A stretch of DNA of 64,000 nucleotides, taken from positions 3,092,340 through 3,156,339 of the forward strand of contig CBDDED010000003.1 in the NCBI GenBank assembly GCA_965226825.1, read 5' to 3'. Below the pieces are notes generated by a model that was not told the DNA's origin, searched no databases, and saw only the letters and a list, made by a program, of their open reading frames with translations. This document shows, one piece after another, positions 2,721-56,856 of the stretch (position 1 is the stretch's first letter; the number at the start of each line of letters is the position of its first letter). The translations under genes and the position numbers were made by a program. Origin of the DNA: Dehalococcoidia bacterium. GTDB lineage: Bacteria > Chloroflexota > Dehalococcoidia > Lucifugimonadales > UBA3495.

Positions 2721-3182
2721 ATGAGATTGGAGAATAGCTGCCTGATACCCACCGACCCGGCGACCGCTTGGAACCTTATCATGGACATCCCCGAAGCCGC
2801 CGTATGTGTCCCCGGCCTGAAGGAGATAACCCCCGAGGGGGACGGCCGTTATTCGGCCTCCCTGCAGGCGCGAGTGGGTCCGATGAGCCTTAACTTCTCC
2901 GGGACGGTGTCGGTGCTGGAATCGCATGCAACTCTCCGGGAAGCCAGGGTTCTTGTGGAGGCATCCGACCGCCGGGTGGGCGGGTCCATCAAGGCCGATA
3001 TGACGATTACCGTGACGGAACATGAGCCCGGACAGACCCGGCTGGGCATAGTGACCGAGACGGCTTTCATGGGCAAGCTGGGGGAATTGGGCCAACCCTT
3101 GATGCATCGCAAAGCCAGGACTACCGTTGAGGAGTTTGCCAAAAACTTGGCGCGGTCTATTCAGCGCCAAATCGGAGAGTAA
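2721..3182 (+). CDS. coxG: CoxG/SRPBCC family protein
   Basis: W...D.PE.A.CVPG N-terminus and GKLGELG; context with coxSM. Confidence 0.8.
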   Translation: MRLENSCLIPTDPATAWNLIMDIPEAAVCVPGLKEITPEGDGRYSASLQARVGPMSLNFSGTVSVLESHATLREARVLVEASDRRVGGSIKADMTITVTEHEPGQTRLGIVTETAFMGKLGELGQPLMHRKARTTVEEFAKNLARSIQRQIGE

Positions 3183-51401: not shown

Positions 51402-52247
51402 ATGGGCCCGGTGATCGACAGCCATTGCCATATCTTCCCCGGCGATTTCTCCGAGAGGCGCTCTGAATTGCTGGCGCGGGACGTCACCTTCGCCGAACTG
51501 TTTTCCAGGGGCCGGGCGGCGTTGGCGACTGCGGAGACCCTGGTTGAAGCGATGGACCGTCATGGGATTGACCAGGCGGTGACGATGGGAGTGGGCTGGA
51601 ATGACCTCGCCCTGGCCCGGGAGGCCAACGATTACCTGATGGAGGCCGTCGCGGCCTATCCCGGACGGATTTCGGGTCTATGCTCGGTTAACCCCCGCTG
51701 GGGCAAGGCGACGCTGGATGAAATGGAGCGTTGCGCCGAGGGCGGCCTGATCGGGATTGGAGAATTGCACCCAGACACCCAGGGATTTGCCCTTGACGAC
51801 CAGGCCACCCTGGCCCCACTGATGGATTTAACCCGACGGCTGGGCTGGCCGGTGCTGGTCCACTGCTCCGAACCGGCTGGGCATGACTATCCGGGCAAGG
51901 GATCAACCACCCCTGGAAAAGTCTACCGGTTCATAGCAAATTTCCCGGAAGCCCGGATCATTTGCGCCCACTGGGGCGGCGGGTTGCCCTTCTACACACT
52001 GATGCCCGAGGTTCCGGCAGTGCTGGAAAATGTCTTTTTCGATACCGCGGCTACGCCGTTCCTCTACCGACCGGCGGTGTACCGGACCGGGGCAAGTCTC
52101 GCAGGGGCGGACAAGGTCCTCTTCGCCACCGATTTTCCGCTGATCGGGTACCCCAGGGCTTTGGGCCAGGTCGAAGAATCCGGGCTGCAGCCCGGGGACC
52201 GGGAAGCCATCTTGGGAGGCAATGCCGCCCGCCTATTTGGCCTGTGA
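51402..52247 (+). CDS. amidohydrolase family 2 protein
   Basis: IDSHCH, GIGELHP, AHWGGG and FATDFP motifs. Confidence 0.9.
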   Translation: MGPVIDSHCHIFPGDFSERRSELLARDVTFAELFSRGRAALATAETLVEAMDRHGIDQAVTMGVGWNDLALAREANDYLMEAVAAYPGRISGLCSVNPRWGKATLDEMERCAEGGLIGIGELHPDTQGFALDDQATLAPLMDLTRRLGWPVLVHCSEPAGHDYPGKGSTTPGKVYRFIANFPEARIICAHWGGGLPFYTLMPEVPAVLENVFFDTAATPFLYRPAVYRTGASLAGADKVLFATDFPLIGYPRALGQVEESGLQPGDREAILGGNAARLFGL

Positions 52248-52578
52248 TGCTTCGCGGGGTCTGTGGGCAATGGACCGGATTGAAACCGGGTTCTGGAGGA
52301 CTTGGAAAGCCTCGTGGGGGAAGACGTAGGGTCTTTCGATTATCATCGAATCCCCCGTGGCTCTTGCCGCAACGGGAAGCTGGAGCCCATTTTGACTCCT
52401 ACTCCTGTCATTCTCGCCGCAGCGGGAATCCAGAGCCCTTTTCCCCATCCAACCTGGTGCGTGTCTGCAGGAATGTTCCAGGTGGGACGTCGACCTGTCC
52501 ATCCGGCGCGTCTTAGTTGGCATAAAAGTCTTGGCACATAATCAGGGCTCTGGATTCCCGTTGCGACAAGAATTGCCA

Positions 52579-52771
52579 TGGCCTTGTCCAGGCCACACAT
52601 GAGGATGAAAATGGGACGGCGTCGGCTGGCAGAGTAGGCGGTTGTCATTGGCGCCTTGAGCCCGTGCGAGAATTTGCCTCGGTGACCTGCAGGCACCCAT
52701 GATTGTAGCCCCGCGTTGGCGGTGAGCACGAATAGTAACGTCTTGAATTTTAAGGTCGCCCGCCGGCTGGC
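52579..52771 (+). ncRNA. putative bridge/seek RNA of IS110 element 1
   Basis: Stems covary with element 2; loop segments ttgtcatt (52642-49) and gcgagaat (52666-73) match the REP target, atagtaa (52732-38) matches its own right end. Confidence 0.8.
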
Positions 52772-52794
52772 AGCATTCGAATTGGAGCTTGGAG

Positions 52795-54003
52795 ATGGAC
52801 AGCATCATAGAGAGGTGTTGCGGCCTGGACGTGCACAAGAAGTCGGTGGTGGCTTGCGCCGTCACCCCCGAGGGCCAGGAAGTCCGCACTTTCCGCACCA
52901 TGACCAAAGACCTTCCGGAATTGTCCGACTGGCTCAAGGACCACCGGGTGACCCACGCGGCCATGGAGAGCACCGGGGTCTACTGGAAGCCGGTCTACAA
53001 TCTGTTGGAGGCGGACTTCACCGTCTGGGTGGTCAACGCGCACCACATGAAGGCGGTGCCGGGGCGCAAGACCGACGTGAAGGATGCCGAGTGGATCGCC
53101 GATCTGCTGCGTCACGGTCTGTTGCGGCCCAGCTTCATCCCGGACCGGCCCCAGCGGGAACTGCGGGAGCTGACCCGCTACCGGCGGAGTCTGATCCAGG
53201 AGCGCACCCGGGCGGCGAACCGGATTCACCAGGTGCTGGAGGGGGCTAACATCAAGCTGGGATCGGTGGCCTCCAACGTGCTGGGGGTATCGGGACGGGC
53301 CATGCTGGCATCGCTGGCGCAGGAGGAGGAAGACCCCAAGGCATTGGCCGACCTGGCCCAGGGGAAGCTCCGGGATAAGATTGGCGAACTGGAGGAGGCG
53401 CTGCGGGGTGTAATAGGCCCGCATCAACGCTACCTGCTGAGCCGCTTGCTACGCCACTTCAGTTTCCTGGACGGGGAAATCGATGCTCTGAGCGAGGAGG
53501 TGGCCCAGCGGGTGGACCCTTTTGAGGAGACGGTGGCGGCGGTGGACGCCATTCCGGGGGTGGGGCGGCGTACTGCCGAGGTGGTGGTCGCGGAGATGGG
53601 CACGGACATGAGCCGGTTTCCCAGTGGGGGTCACCTGGCTTCCTGGGCCGGGGTGTGTCCAGGGAACAACCGGAGCGCGGAGAAGCATAAGCGCGCTCCC
53701 ACCAAGAAGGGCAACGGTTGGCTCAAGGCGGCTTTGGTGGAGGCGGCCAGGTCCGCAGCGCGCACCAAGACCTATCTGGGTGCCCAGTACCAGCGCCTCG
53801 CCCGGCGCATCGGGGCCAACCGGGCGGCCATGGCGGTAGCCCACTCCATCGCGGTCATCCTCTACCAGGTCATCAAGACCGGAAAGCCCTTCTTAGACCT
53901 GGGCCAACAGTACTTCGAACAACGCCAAGGCGCCGCCGCCACCCGCCGCTATGTCCGCCAACTCGAACGCCTCGGCCACCAAGTCACACTACAACCAGCC
54001 TGA
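52795..54003 (+). CDS. IS110 family DEDD recombinase/transposase
   Basis: GLDVHK, MESTG, KTDVKDA and PGNNRSA motifs. Confidence 0.96.
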   Translation: MDSIIERCCGLDVHKKSVVACAVTPEGQEVRTFRTMTKDLPELSDWLKDHRVTHAAMESTGVYWKPVYNLLEADFTVWVVNAHHMKAVPGRKTDVKDAEWIADLLRHGLLRPSFIPDRPQRELRELTRYRRSLIQERTRAANRIHQVLEGANIKLGSVASNVLGVSGRAMLASLAQEEEDPKALADLAQGKLRDKIGELEEALRGVIGPHQRYLLSRLLRHFSFLDGEIDALSEEVAQRVDPFEETVAAVDAIPGVGRRTAEVVVAEMGTDMSRFPSGGHLASWAGVCPGNNRSAEKHKRAPTKKGNGWLKAALVEAARSAARTKTYLGAQYQRLARRIGANRAAMAVAHSIAVILYQVIKTGKPFLDLGQQYFEQRQGAAATRRYVRQLERLGHQVTLQPA

Positions 54004-54030
54004 ACACGCTATTTTCATAGTAATTGCGGA

Positions 54031-54223
54031 TGGCCTTGCCGAGGCCACGCATGAAGAATGAAAATGACCCGGCGCCGGCCGGCACTATGGGCGGTCGTCA
54101 TTGGCGCTGTGAGCCCGCGTGGTAATTTGCCCTGGTGACCGCCAGGAACGCCTGAATGTCGCCCCGTCCTGACGGGAGCACGCATAATAAAGTCTCGATT
54201 ATTTCGGTCACCGGCCAGCCGGC
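54031..54223 (+). ncRNA. putative bridge/seek RNA of IS110 element 2
   Basis: Same fold; loop segments tcgtcatt (54095-102), gtggtaat (54119-126) and cataataa (54183-190). Confidence 0.8.
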
Positions 54224-54260
54224 AGCCCGCCCAGGGAGACTGAAGATAGGGGGACGCAAG

Positions 54261-55484
54261 ATGGAGAGCATTATCGAGAGGTGCTGTGGGCTGGACGTGC
54301 ATAAGAAATCGGTGGTGGCCTGTGCCATCACGCCGGAGGTCCAAGAGGTCCGCACCTTCAGGACCATGACCAGGGACCTGCTGGCGTTGGCCGATTGGCT
54401 TAAGGACCACCGGGTGACCCACGTGGCCATGGAGAGCACCGGCGTCTACTGGAAGCCGGTCTACAACCTGTTGGAGGACGAGTTTAGCGTCTGGGTGGTC
54501 AACGCCCATCACATGAAGGCCGTGCCGGGGCGCAAGACCGACGTGAAGGACGCCGAATGGATTGCCGACCTGCTGCGCCACGGTTTGTTGCGTTCCAGCT
54601 TCATCCCGGACCGGCCCCAGCGGGAACTGCGGGAGTTGACTCGCTACCGGCGCAGCCTGGTTCAGGAGCGCACCAGGGAGGCCAACCGGATCCAAAAAGT
54701 GCTGGAAGGGGCCAACGTCAAGCTGGGGTCGGTGGCCACCGACGTGCTGGGGGTATCGGGGCGGGCCATGCTGAAGGCCCTGTCCGAAGGGGAGGAGGAC
54801 CCGAAGGCGCTGGCGGAGTTGGCCCGGGGGCGGCTGAGGGAGAAGCGAGAGGAACTGGAGGAGGCCCTGCGGGGCCTGATGGGGCCGCATCAGCGCTTCA
54901 TGCTGGCCATCCAACTGGACCGCCTCAACTGCCTGGACGGGCAGATCGAGACCCTGGATCTGGAGGTGGGCCGGCGGGTGGACCCTTTTGAGGAGACGGT
55001 GGCGGCGGTGGACACCATCCCGGGGATCGGACGGCGCACCGCCGAGGTCATCGTGGCGGAGATGGGCACGGACATGAGCCGGTTTCCCAGTGGGGGTCAC
55101 CTGGCTTCCTGGGCCGGGGTGTGTCCAGGGAACAACCGGAGCGCGGAGAAGCATAAGCGCGCTCCCACCAAGAAGGGCAACGGTTGGCTCAAGGCGGCTT
55201 TGGTGGAGGCGGCCAAGTCCGCAGCGCGCACCAAGACCTATCTGGGCGCCCAGTACCAGCGCCTCGCCCGGCGCATCGGGGCCAACCGGGCGGCCATGGC
55301 GGTTGCCCACTCTATCGCCGTTATACTGCACCAAGTCATCAAGACCGGAAAGCCCTTCTTCGACCTCGGCCAACAGTACTTCGAAGAGCGCGACCGCGCC
55401 GCCATCACCCGCCGGTCGGTCCGCCAACTCGAACGCCTCGGTTACAAAATAACTCTGGAAGTCCCTACCCTCCAAGCCGCCTGA
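54261..55484 (+). CDS. IS110 family DEDD recombinase/transposase
   Basis: Same catalytic motifs; start MESIIER aligns with element 1 MDSIIER. Confidence 0.96.
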
Positions 55485-55587
55485 ACCATATTTTCATAAT
55501 AATGACGGGGTAGGAGTCAAAATGGGCTCCAGCTTCCCGCTGCGGCTGGAATGACGGGGGACAATAGAAAGACCCTGATCCGCCGGG

Positions 55588-55971
55588 TCAACCGCGGACC
55601 CGGTAGATTTCCACGGCGGCATGGTCGATTACCGACCCACGGATGGGCGGGTGCGGCTTCTTTACTCTGATACCCACTGCCCGCACCGGAAATTTTTCCA
55701 AAACCCTGCTGGCGATTGCCTGGGCTGTGGACTCCAGCAAATTCCGCGGATCGCCTTCCACCACATCCCGAACTTCCCGGTAAAGACCGGAGTAGCTGAC
55801 CGTGTCTTCCAGCTTGTCCGAGTCTCCGGCCCGGCTCAAATCCAACTCAACGCTGAGGTCAACCAGGTACGATTGCCCCAGGACCCGCTCTTCTTCGTTG
55901 ACGCCGTGAAAGCCGTAAAACTGCATCCCTTCCAGGATGATTCGGTCCGACGGCGGCAGGGCTTCAGCCAT
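55588..55971 (-). CDS. folB: dihydroneopterin aldolase
   Basis: FYGFHGV..EER..GQ, TVSY, NLLE and KPHPP motifs. Confidence 0.95.
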   Translation of the reverse strand: MAEALPPSDRIILEGMQFYGFHGVNEEERVLGQSYLVDLSVELDLSRAGDSDKLEDTVSYSGLYREVRDVVEGDPRNLLESTAQAIASRVLEKFPVRAVGIRVKKPHPPIRGSVIDHAAVEIYRVRG

Positions 55972-55977
55972 CCGGCT

Positions 55978-56856
55978 TCACGAATCGGCCTGCCGGACCT
56001 GCTCCGCAATGGCCAGCAGGTTCCGGGCTCGTTTGACCACCGGAACGTCGATCATGCGCCCATCCAGCGAAAGAGACCCCCGGCCCTGCGCCTCAGCCTG
56101 GTCCCATGCGTCCACCACTCGCTCGGCATAGGCAACTTCATCCGGGGCCGGTGCAAAGGCTTCGTTGATTGTGGGAATCTGGGCAGGATGAATCGCGAAG
56201 CGTCCGGTGAATCCCATACGCCGGCTGATTTGAAGGTCGCGCCGCAGGCCGTCTTCGTCCCGGAATTGAACGAATGGGGTATCCAGCGACCCAATCCCGG
56301 CCGCCCTGGCGGCGACGGCTACAGTGGCGCGCGCAAATTCCAATTCCTCCCCGGCATCGGTGCGCTGTATCCCCATGTCGTCGGTATAGTCCTCGGCCCC
56401 GAAGGCGATGGCCTCAATGCGGGGAGAACTGGTAGCCAGTTCCAGGGCCGTCAGCACTGCCCTGGCGTTTTCGATCCAGGGAATCACTTTTATCTGTCCA
56501 GGAGGTAAGCCCGCCGCCGATTCCGCGTTTGTGATGATGCGGTCAACGTCTTTCAGGTCAAAAACTGTTTGGGACTTCCCGATGCTGATCCCGGCGAGGT
56601 CCGGGCTTATCAGGGCCTCCAACTCGCCTCGGGTGAGCCCGGTGTCGAACGAGTTGACCCGCGCCATCACGCGTTTCCCTGCCTTCGCCAGCCTGGGCGC
56701 CCACTCCAGCGCGGTTGCCAGTGCTGCCGGCTTCTCTCCCGGCGGCACCGAGTCCTCCAGGTCGATCATTATCACGTCGGCCTTGAATTCCAAGGCCCTT
56801 TCCAGCATCCTGGCCTGGTTGCCGGGGACGAATATCAGGCTGCGCAGTAGGTTCAT
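55978..56856 (-). CDS. CitE/malyl-CoA lyase (HpcH/HpaI) family protein
   Basis: RSLIFVPGN, DLEDSV, FGAEDY, AIHPAQ and MIDVP motifs. Confidence 0.9.
   Translation of the reverse strand: MNLLRSLIFVPGNQARMLERALEFKADVIMIDLEDSVPPGEKPAALATALEWAPRLAKAGKRVMARVNSFDTGLTRGELEALISPDLAGISIGKSQTVFDLKDVDRIITNAESAAGLPPGQIKVIPWIENARAVLTALELATSSPRIEAIAFGAEDYTDDMGIQRTDAGEELEFARATVAVAARAAGIGSLDTPFVQFRDEDGLRRDLQISRRMGFTGRFAIHPAQIPTINEAFAPAPDEVAYAERVVDAWDQAEAQGRGSLSLDGRMIDVPVVKRARNLLAIAEQVRQADS

Follow-up and report, generated by a model that had tools for sequence, protein, structure and literature searches.

The window analyzed here, a stretch of 64,000 nucleotides from a Dehalococcoidia bacterium (GenBank assembly GCA_965226825.1, contig CBDDED010000003.1, positions 3,092,340 to 3,156,339), carries two insertion sequences (ISs) of the IS110 family, designated element 1 and element 2. 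The genome it comes from (G000) comprises 3.87 Mb in three contigs, and several public sequencing runs containing the stretch are labeled as sponge metagenome. We observed that the two elements lie head to tail at positions 52575-55503, inside one repetitive extragenic palindrome (REP); all features given by window position are on the forward strand. The left half of the disrupted REP (gggctctggattcccgttgcgacaagAAT, 52545-52574) includes the core AAT and constitutes the left target of element 1. Element 1 is intact and measures 1450 bp including its terminal AAT (52575-54024). Its left end (LE) starts with TGCCATGG and its right end (RE) finishes with TTTTCATAGTAAT. Element 2 is likewise intact, measures 1479 bp (54025-55503), runs from TGCGGATGG to TTTTCATAATAAT, and is present as a single copy in G000. 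The outer flanks of the tandem are GCGACAAGAAT, up to 52574, and GACGGGGTAGG, from 55504, where the right half of the disrupted REP is followed by a second REP unit (55504-55560); this half is the right target of both elements. A single AAT is found at each junction of the tandem. The right end of element 1 reads tattttcatagtAAT (54010-54024; last eight bases ATAGTAAT, 54017-54024) and that of element 2 reads tattttcataatAAT (55489-55503; last eight bases ATAATAAT, 55496-55503).

Each element contains one recombinase gene. Element 1 encodes a protein of 402 aa (52795-54003; Pfam DEDD_Tnp_IS110, E 2.9e-40; Transposase_20, E 7.7e-22) and element 2 a protein of 407 aa (54261-55484; E 2.3e-39 and 8.7e-23, respectively). 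Both open reading frames score well over the cut-offs of PF01548 and PF02371, which correspond to an N-terminal DEDD (RuvC-like) domain and a C-terminal Transposase_20 domain. The non-coding stretch from the left end to the ATG is 220 nt long in element 1 and 236 nt long in element 2. By their domains and 5' non-coding regions, both are members of the IS110 family (IS110 group). The two are 83.6% identical over 1413 nt. Three full copies of element 1 (96-100% identity) are found in G000. The other two occupy bare REPs, with GCGGCGAGAAT on the left, GACGGGG on the right and GGGCTCTGGATTCCCGCTGCGGCGAGAAT as the REP unit; exact GCGAGAATGAC sites number 147 in this genome. Elsewhere, copies of element 2 were found in genomes G003 (97% identity) and G009 (93%). 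The recombinase genes of the G000 and G003 copies differ at 30 synonymous and 12 non-synonymous codons, and both frames are intact.

In IS621 and other members of the IS110 group, a DEDD recombinase is accompanied by a 5' bridge RNA with one loop for the target and another for the donor (Durrant et al. 2024, PMC11208160), and the two elements follow the same plan. A consensus fold of 14 relatives obtained with RNAalifold revealed two internal loops flanked by stems and conserved in the relatives, which is bridge RNA architecture, with compensatory changes in 11 of 43 pairs. The bridge RNA regions lie at 52628-52790 in element 1 (placed by the fold, the guides and a donor guide equal to its own RE) and at 54078-54256 in element 2 (placed by the fold, the guides and the guide-masked tree described below). 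The target loop lies between the stems at columns 72-77:110-115 and 85-90:96-100. Its 5' strand carries the right target guide (RTG), ttgtcatt (52642-52649) in element 1 and tcgtcatt (54095-54102) in element 2, and its 3' strand carries the left target guide (LTG), GCGAGAAT (52666-52673) in element 1 and GTGGTAAT (54119-54126) in element 2; the guides of the two elements occupy aligned positions. Both RTGs (AATGACAA and AATGACGA) complement the right half of the REP. A sequence-only reading of the window preceded this work, and its aligned guides, coordinates and letters for both elements were all confirmed against the sequence.

The donor loop lies inside the stem at columns 118-124:203-209 and carries a left donor guide (LDG; aatagtaa, 52731-52738, in element 1; cataataa, 54183-54190, in element 2) that corresponds to the element's own right end. 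The pairs are AATAGTAA and ATAGTAAT in element 1, CATAATAA and CATAATAAT in element 2, and CATGGCAA and CATGGCAAT in the relatives L004 and L005. For the right donor guide (RDG), an alignment by eye with the start of the left end covered only 3-5 nt, core counted, and no simple antisense RDG was found in the donor loops of element 1, element 2 or their relatives. We also noted a likeness, in the same sense, between the donor loop's 5' strand and part of the subterminal left end (52680-52700 and 52598-52615 in element 1; 54145-54160 and 54047-54062 in element 2), and the two vary together across relatives (ACGTATGAA with ACGTATGAA, ACATAAGA with ACATAAGA). In IS621, the left guide reads in the same sense as the left flank, the right guide runs antisense to the flank on the right, both guides take in the core, and REPs are the usual target (PMC11208160); the guides of both elements have the same sense relations. 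Unlike IS621 as described there, which has the core CT, the elements have AAT (or part of it) as the core, and their right guide is 5' and their left guide 3'. A scan of 52000-56000 against Rfam 15 (E up to 1) gave no match, and that library may have no model for such an RNA.

In order to compare guides with flanks, elements were collected by their conserved loop scaffold, regardless of guide, from one genome per species (23 stretches), from relatives and from all 203 genomes of the family. Across relatives, the LTG was observed to follow the left flank and the RTG the right flank. Over 15 lineages, with six variable guide positions in each, 67 of 90 positions were identical to the left flank of the same element, against a mean of 41.7 for shuffled flanks; none of 100000 shuffles reached 67, a significance that is overstated because the lineages are related. 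The RTG covaries with the right flank, as seen in L004 (AATGCTA, with the flank GCTACC) and L093 (AATGACAA, with the flank GACAAG). Element 1 obeys this rule: its LTG, GCGAGAAT, equals the REP flank of its other two full copies and differs from its own flank in the window, ACAAGAAT, at positions 1 and 3. All six element-1-type left ends in G000, three in full elements and three in miniature elements (minis), have a REP left flank. Metagenome contigs were also scanned for the scaffold pattern with a base other than G before AAT. This gave one match, the distant element L054. The guide of L054, GAAGCAAT, is the same as the left flank, an ordinary sequence that is not part of an IS, and so fits the rule; the scan gave no further element targeting a right end. 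A scan of 401 genomes of the order for the donor loop of element 2 returned only REP-type elements with the LDG CATAGTAA.

The left guide of element 2 fits the end of its neighbor. Comparison of GTGGTAAT with the last eight bases of element 1, ATAGTAAT, gave six identities, two rG:dT wobbles and no mismatch. Both wobbles place a guide G over A, at positions 1 and 3, and it was confirmed that these are the positions at which the element 1 guide departs from ACAAGAAT, as the sequence-only reading had claimed. Against the host REP (GGCGAG), the 9-nt guide of element 2 has two mismatches and two wobbles in the six variable positions. The RTG of element 2 fits AATGACG, and at the junction between the elements both halves of its target loop fit, unlike a boundary that matches one donor half. 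Five sites in G000 fit RTRRTAATGACG, and all are IS110-type right-end junctions: those of two element 1 copies, one element-1-type mini, one other mini, and element 2 itself. Unrelated GTGGTAATGAC-like sites were absent from G000; copies of element 2 found mainly in such sites would, according to the sequence-only reading, have spoken against it. By identity, the 9-nt guide CGTGGTAAT fits CATAGT and CGCGGG, a REP variant of other genomes, equally well (4/6 each), so that discrimination between them rests on the base before AAT and on acceptance of G:T wobbles.

A fit of this kind might arise by chance next to a tandem produced by an unrelated event, such as local duplication and divergence. 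The probability of a five-position, wobble-tolerant match is, by our rough estimate, about 0.01-0.03 per single case. Coincidence nevertheless appears very improbable, as the elements are only 83.6% identical, the converted tract described below apart, and five genomes show the pattern, with three variants of the guide among them.

We defined a right-end-type guide as one that has a pyrimidine before AAT and fits CAT[A/G][A/G][T/C]AAT. Such guides were present in 5 of the 203 family genomes, belonging to four genera, in a total of seven copies. Three copies carry GTGGTAAT: element 2 of the window (genus g1), whose left neighbor is the full element 1; the G003 copy, also of genus g1, behind a 58-bp mini ending in TTTTCATAGTAAT in a REP; and a decayed copy in G009 (genus g4), behind a mini remnant ending in TTTTCATGGTAAT. 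Genome G210 (genus g22) holds two decayed copies with the guide ATGGCAAT, one (L089) behind a mini ending in TTTTCATGGCAAT, to which its guide matches at 8/8 positions, and the other (L086) with a REP left flank. The two copies in G155 (genus g27) are intact and carry ATGACAAT, which matches its left neighbor at 7/8 positions in both cases; this neighbor is a mini ending in TTTTCATGGCAAT for L099 and an inverted pair of right-end fragments, also ending in TTTTCATGGCAAT, for L105. The sequence-only reading had proposed that the left flanks of such copies be tabulated and had expected right ends rather than bare REPs, and this is what was found. In six of the seven copies, the immediate left neighbor is an IS110-type right end, and the junction carries one AAT. 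The left neighbors vary, comprising the full element 1, minis with the left ends GACGGATGG, CACCATGTCC, TGCCGATGG and TGCTGATGG, and one RE fragment. Comparison of the G000, G003 and G009 copies showed no gene-level similarity between their flanks, which have only a REP-associated repeat in common.

Loci with a REP-type guide have no right end to their left in 22 of 26 cases, and the four exceptions are copies of one composite mini pair. We therefore observed an association of the right-end guide type with right-end left flanks (6/7 versus 4/26; Fisher p = 0.0012, the copies being kin and not independent). When the guides were masked, the right-end-targeting bridge RNAs formed one clade (support 0.93), in which element 2 stood with the G155 and G210 elements. 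A looser guide pattern matched 12 genomes; six of the matches (G074, G076, G028, G162, G164 and a second site in G015) were rejected as chance, since they have neither a left end nor RNA context. At L105, the left neighbor contains a palindrome of two right-end fragments (GTCATTGCCATGAAAATAG and GCTATTTTCATGGCAAT) about 95 bases upstream of the guide pattern, on the reverse strand, and the element's own right end reads CATGGCAAT although its donor guide reads CATAATAA.

Minis extend this association. In the genomes that hold a master with a right-end-type guide, element-2-type left ends lie behind another element's right end in 2/2 cases in G000, 9/10 in G003 (one full element and eight minis, in each case behind a mini) and 2/2 in G009. 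In four genomes in which no such master was found, element-2-like left ends lie behind a right end in 0/5 (G018), 0/1 (G015) and 1/1 (G029) cases and behind a right-end-like sequence in 2/6 (G026). The totals are 13/14 and 3/13 (p = 0.0003), or 10/11 and 3/13 (p = 0.0013) with the masters themselves excluded.

In G003, the right partners of these tandems are 76-97% alike, and their left neighbors are 62-83% alike except for one near-identical trio; for L061 and L023, for instance, the values are 95% for the right partners and 74% for the left neighbors. That similar right partners stand beside diverged left neighbors indicates later, independent insertions and not the copying of one unit. These data bear on the possibility that the neighbor and element 2 move as one circle, with the neighbor's left end and the right end of element 2, and that the internal junction is simply inherited. 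A REP-programmed guide such as that of element 1 would then place the unit in bare REPs, and the outer flanks of the window tandem do fit the guides of element 1. Circles from alternative end combinations, including IS plus the miniature element (MITE), are described for ISPpu9 (PMC12288879), a case of paired modules mobilized together. A tandem pair of minis, A and B, in REPs at L033:5872-6660 (also at L032, L038 and L050) behaves in this way; the second mini has a target loop and no recombinase gene, and its guide GCGGGAAT fits the outer REP flank, as though the pair travelled as a unit. We nonetheless consider a composite unit an improbable origin for the element 2 tandems. Their left neighbors differ in kind between loci, near-identical right partners in G003 stand beside strongly diverged left partners (Mantel r = 0.38, a value reached by 519 of 10000 permutations), and a composite would account for neither the origin of the first tandem nor the fit of the guide to the neighbor's end.

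The best-supported explanation, to which we assign a probability of roughly 0.7 on the strength of these comparisons, is that the guide of element 2 is directed at the junction that a relative forms by inserting. Element 2 would represent a small IS110 (bridge-recombinase) lineage in Dehalococcoidia genomes whose target loop reads the hybrid junction left by a relative's insertion into a REP, and not the intact REP. The left guide (GTGGTAAT, or ATGGCAAT or ATGACAAT in relatives) would pair with the right end of the relative and the adjoining AAT core, and the right guide, tcgtcatt, with AAT plus the right REP half, GACG. The predicted target in the window is the element 1 right end at 54010-54024 joined to the GACGG now at 55504-55508. 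Recombination of the element circle at the AAT core of 'right end-AAT-GACGG' would result in an exact head-to-tail landing behind the resident element. That element 2 targets a right end, AAT and a REP half had been proposed from the window, and the comparative data lend support to it. We infer that RNA-guided recombination made the junctions and that the REP-programmed element 1 arrived first and element 2 second. The same order had been regarded as fixed in the sequence-only reading; it holds if a full guide match is required, and published half-match recombination relaxes that requirement. The neighbors of the tandem may then have exchanged sequence by gene conversion.

Several observations weigh against a junction-programmed guide. 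The fit in the window depends on two G:T wobbles, and screens of IS621 show low mismatch tolerance (PMC11208160). One clade copy, L086, has a REP to its left; its left end has the same sequence as the left end of the mini beside the sister copy L089, which fits a tandem that collapsed via left-end recombination. Without a matching master having been found in G026, two of its six element-2-like left ends follow a right-end-like sequence. The mini pair at L032, L033, L038 and L050, in another Dehalococcoidia genome, lies behind a right end though its guide is of the REP type, indicating that tandems are possible when the left guide does not match. A tree of the recombinase gene splits the clade and groups element 1 with element 2 (support 0.92). 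Short-read contigs of four sequencing runs showed no recombination, circle or empty site. Finally, IS621 inserts at sites matching only the left donor (LD) or only the right donor (RD). Such sites account for 47% of the non-target reads (Xie et al., preprint, 10.64898/2026.08.31.748434), and insertion of this kind would also give tandems. With regard to L086, we noted in addition that a comparison of L086:1400-1470 with L089 (reverse strand, 1340-1460) is consistent with a deletion between the two ATGAAAATGG repeats within a tandem.

Insertion at half-matched sites is the basis of another account, in which any member of the family could insert next to a resident copy: the LDG recognizes the resident right end and the RTG the REP half, and the LTG plays no part in the choice of site. 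The likeness of the LTG to right ends would then reflect drift, or a later adjustment aiding excision from the tandem. Such a route has published parallels, as whole IS110 modules are reported to be duplicated in tandem (n = 437), with boundaries that are LD-only (Hu et al., preprint, 10.64898/2026.08.14.744561). The LDG of element 2, CATAATAA, is one base off the right end of element 1, and the mini pairs at L032, L033, L038 and L050 are in tandem with no left-guide match. Moreover, the left junction is paired with the LTG and the RDG in the excision complex (PMC13626964), so a guide could adapt after insertion. This pairing also means that the fit between guide and flank would serve excision as well as insertion. 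Half-match formation strikes us as rather unlikely for the element 2 tandems, as it leaves unexplained why they are restricted to the lineage with the right-end-type guide (6/7 versus 4/26). Element-1-type left ends follow a right end in 0/6 cases in G000 despite available junctions and an equally matching LDG. Drift, for its part, would not yield three guide variants that all fit right ends, one of them at 8/8.

In alignment columns 1100-1300, elements 1 and 2 are 100% and 97% identical, and element 1 of the window is 87-91% identical to its own sister copies in the same block; outside columns 1000-1300 the latter value is mostly 97-99%. This tract of about 250 bp (53590-53846 in element 1, near-identical to ~55055-55311 in element 2) has the appearance of a gene conversion with element 2 as donor and element 1 as recipient, and it is the probable reason for the grouping of the two elements on the recombinase tree. 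The non-monophyly on that tree is attributed to recombination, on the basis that the bridge RNA tree recovers the clade and that the converted tract is visible in the alignment.

Contigs assembled from short reads, which are noisy from repeats, were compared for the four runs. In X11 (record 13) and X16 (record 30), contigs span positions 54024/54025, so the tandem junction is present in runs of two other studies. No short-read contig held an element-1-only or empty allele of the locus, the listed joints being those of other copies or minis, and no circle junction of element 2 was identifiable in these contigs. Contigs of the RNA library (X1) cover both elements, which is no proof of transcription. 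A promoter for element 2 supplied by the neighbor's right end was considered and rejected, as no plus-strand sigma-70-like site was found at the junction of the two elements. The orthologous flanks in G003 are on different contigs, at 90% identity for the gene on the left and 94% for the genes on the right, with neither REP nor IS between, and no pre-insertion state of the locus was recoverable from the runs or from sister genomes. A repeat of ~166 bp (52407-52572) adjoins the REP in the window and lies beside the other element 1 copies as well. It recurs in inverted orientation beside the G003 copy of element 2 (87% over 166 bp) and is a longer REP-associated unit.

On balance we lean slightly toward viewing the lineage as a parasite of its own relatives, a reading that we offer as a whole. 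Its target loop would be set for a scar junction (right end, core and REP half), and the guide would track local right-end variants (GTGGT, ATGGC, ATGAC). Its own right end, ATAAT, would have moved away from the best fit of the guide, limiting self-stacking, and mixed tandems would recombine and perhaps travel together. On this reading, insertion would regenerate a target, but for a different lineage. The suggestion that arrays could extend further, made in the sequence-only reading, found no support: a second clade member was present at 0/6 of the intact right junctions of the clade.

Element 2 sits within the known bridge RNA/IS110 system, and tandem arrays and half-match insertion have already appeared in preprints. 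Natural IS110 loci are reported to grow by repeated insertion and tandem duplication (10.64898/2026.08.14.744561). The half-match loci of Hu et al. and Xie et al. resemble the tandem described here in that insertion occurs at occupied sites, modules are in tandem and the resident right end (LD) is kept. They differ in that their boundaries, as reported, are one-sided donor matches of the resident's own RNA, whereas here the RNA belongs to a different lineage and both halves of its target loop match the hybrid junction. Unlike IS621 as published, element 2 would use a loop that reads a site existing only after a relative's insertion.

In Pseudomonas putida, too, an IS110-family element in a REP has a second module immediately downstream: ISPpu9 is accompanied by MITEPpu9/ssr9, and MITEPpu9 has been called a hitchhiking selfish element (PMC12288879). 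As described there, MITEPpu9 lacks both a recombinase and a guide and carries copies of the ends of its host. Element 2 is autonomous, having an intact recombinase gene, a donor loop, a target loop that appears retargeted and ends that differ from those of element 1; the element-2-type minis of G003 would fit the MITE type of hitchhiker. A member of the wider family targets the end of another mobile element, as element 2 would. Its target, however, is the inverted repeat of an unrelated transposon, and no junction of a relative's end with a shared chromosomal half is involved. A target loop fully matched to the hybrid junction of a relative was not found in the literature searched, and the supplements of Durrant et al. 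(Supplementary Data 2, which gives target motifs by guide bin) and of Hu et al. might contain IS-end targets.

If the guide is indeed set for such junctions, this would qualify the statement of Hu et al. that insertion regenerates no target (10.64898/2026.08.14.744561). Natural retargeting of bridge RNA loops would extend beyond host repeats to sites made by another mobile element, and mixed IS110 tandem arrays would have a sequence-programmed origin beside the half-match route. The window would also provide a natural test of guide tolerance, with rG:dT wobbles adjoining the core, that is relevant to the design of bridge editors, and an example of tandem neighbors becoming mosaics through gene conversion.

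Further repeats related to these elements were noted. Minis of ~58 bp whose left end, GACGG (or GGCGG), has the same letters as the right REP half are found at L002:1441-1500 (G003) and on contig C3 of G000 near 1684489, 2295960 (minus strand), 2325367, 2325598 and 2952959. With such a left end, the left junction (GCGAGAAT followed by GACGG) recreates a complete REP target, and the circle junction of these minis would equal the target of element 2; no master with a GACGG-type left end was found. Four tandem units of ~253 bp lie outside the window, at C3:2863416-2864174 in G000, each with a left-end-like stretch and TTTCCATAGTAAT, which is followed in three units by CCGGAGG and not GACGG. A 73%-related element at L006 (G058; 1300-1500 and 2900-3000), found also at L019 and L030, is preceded by repeated units of a left-end fragment plus a REP half. 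At these three loci, a second copy of the right end lies 38 bp downstream (TTTTCATGGTAAT GACGG, then TTTTCATGATAAT GACGG). The repeated units and the second right ends may be what is left of earlier tandems.

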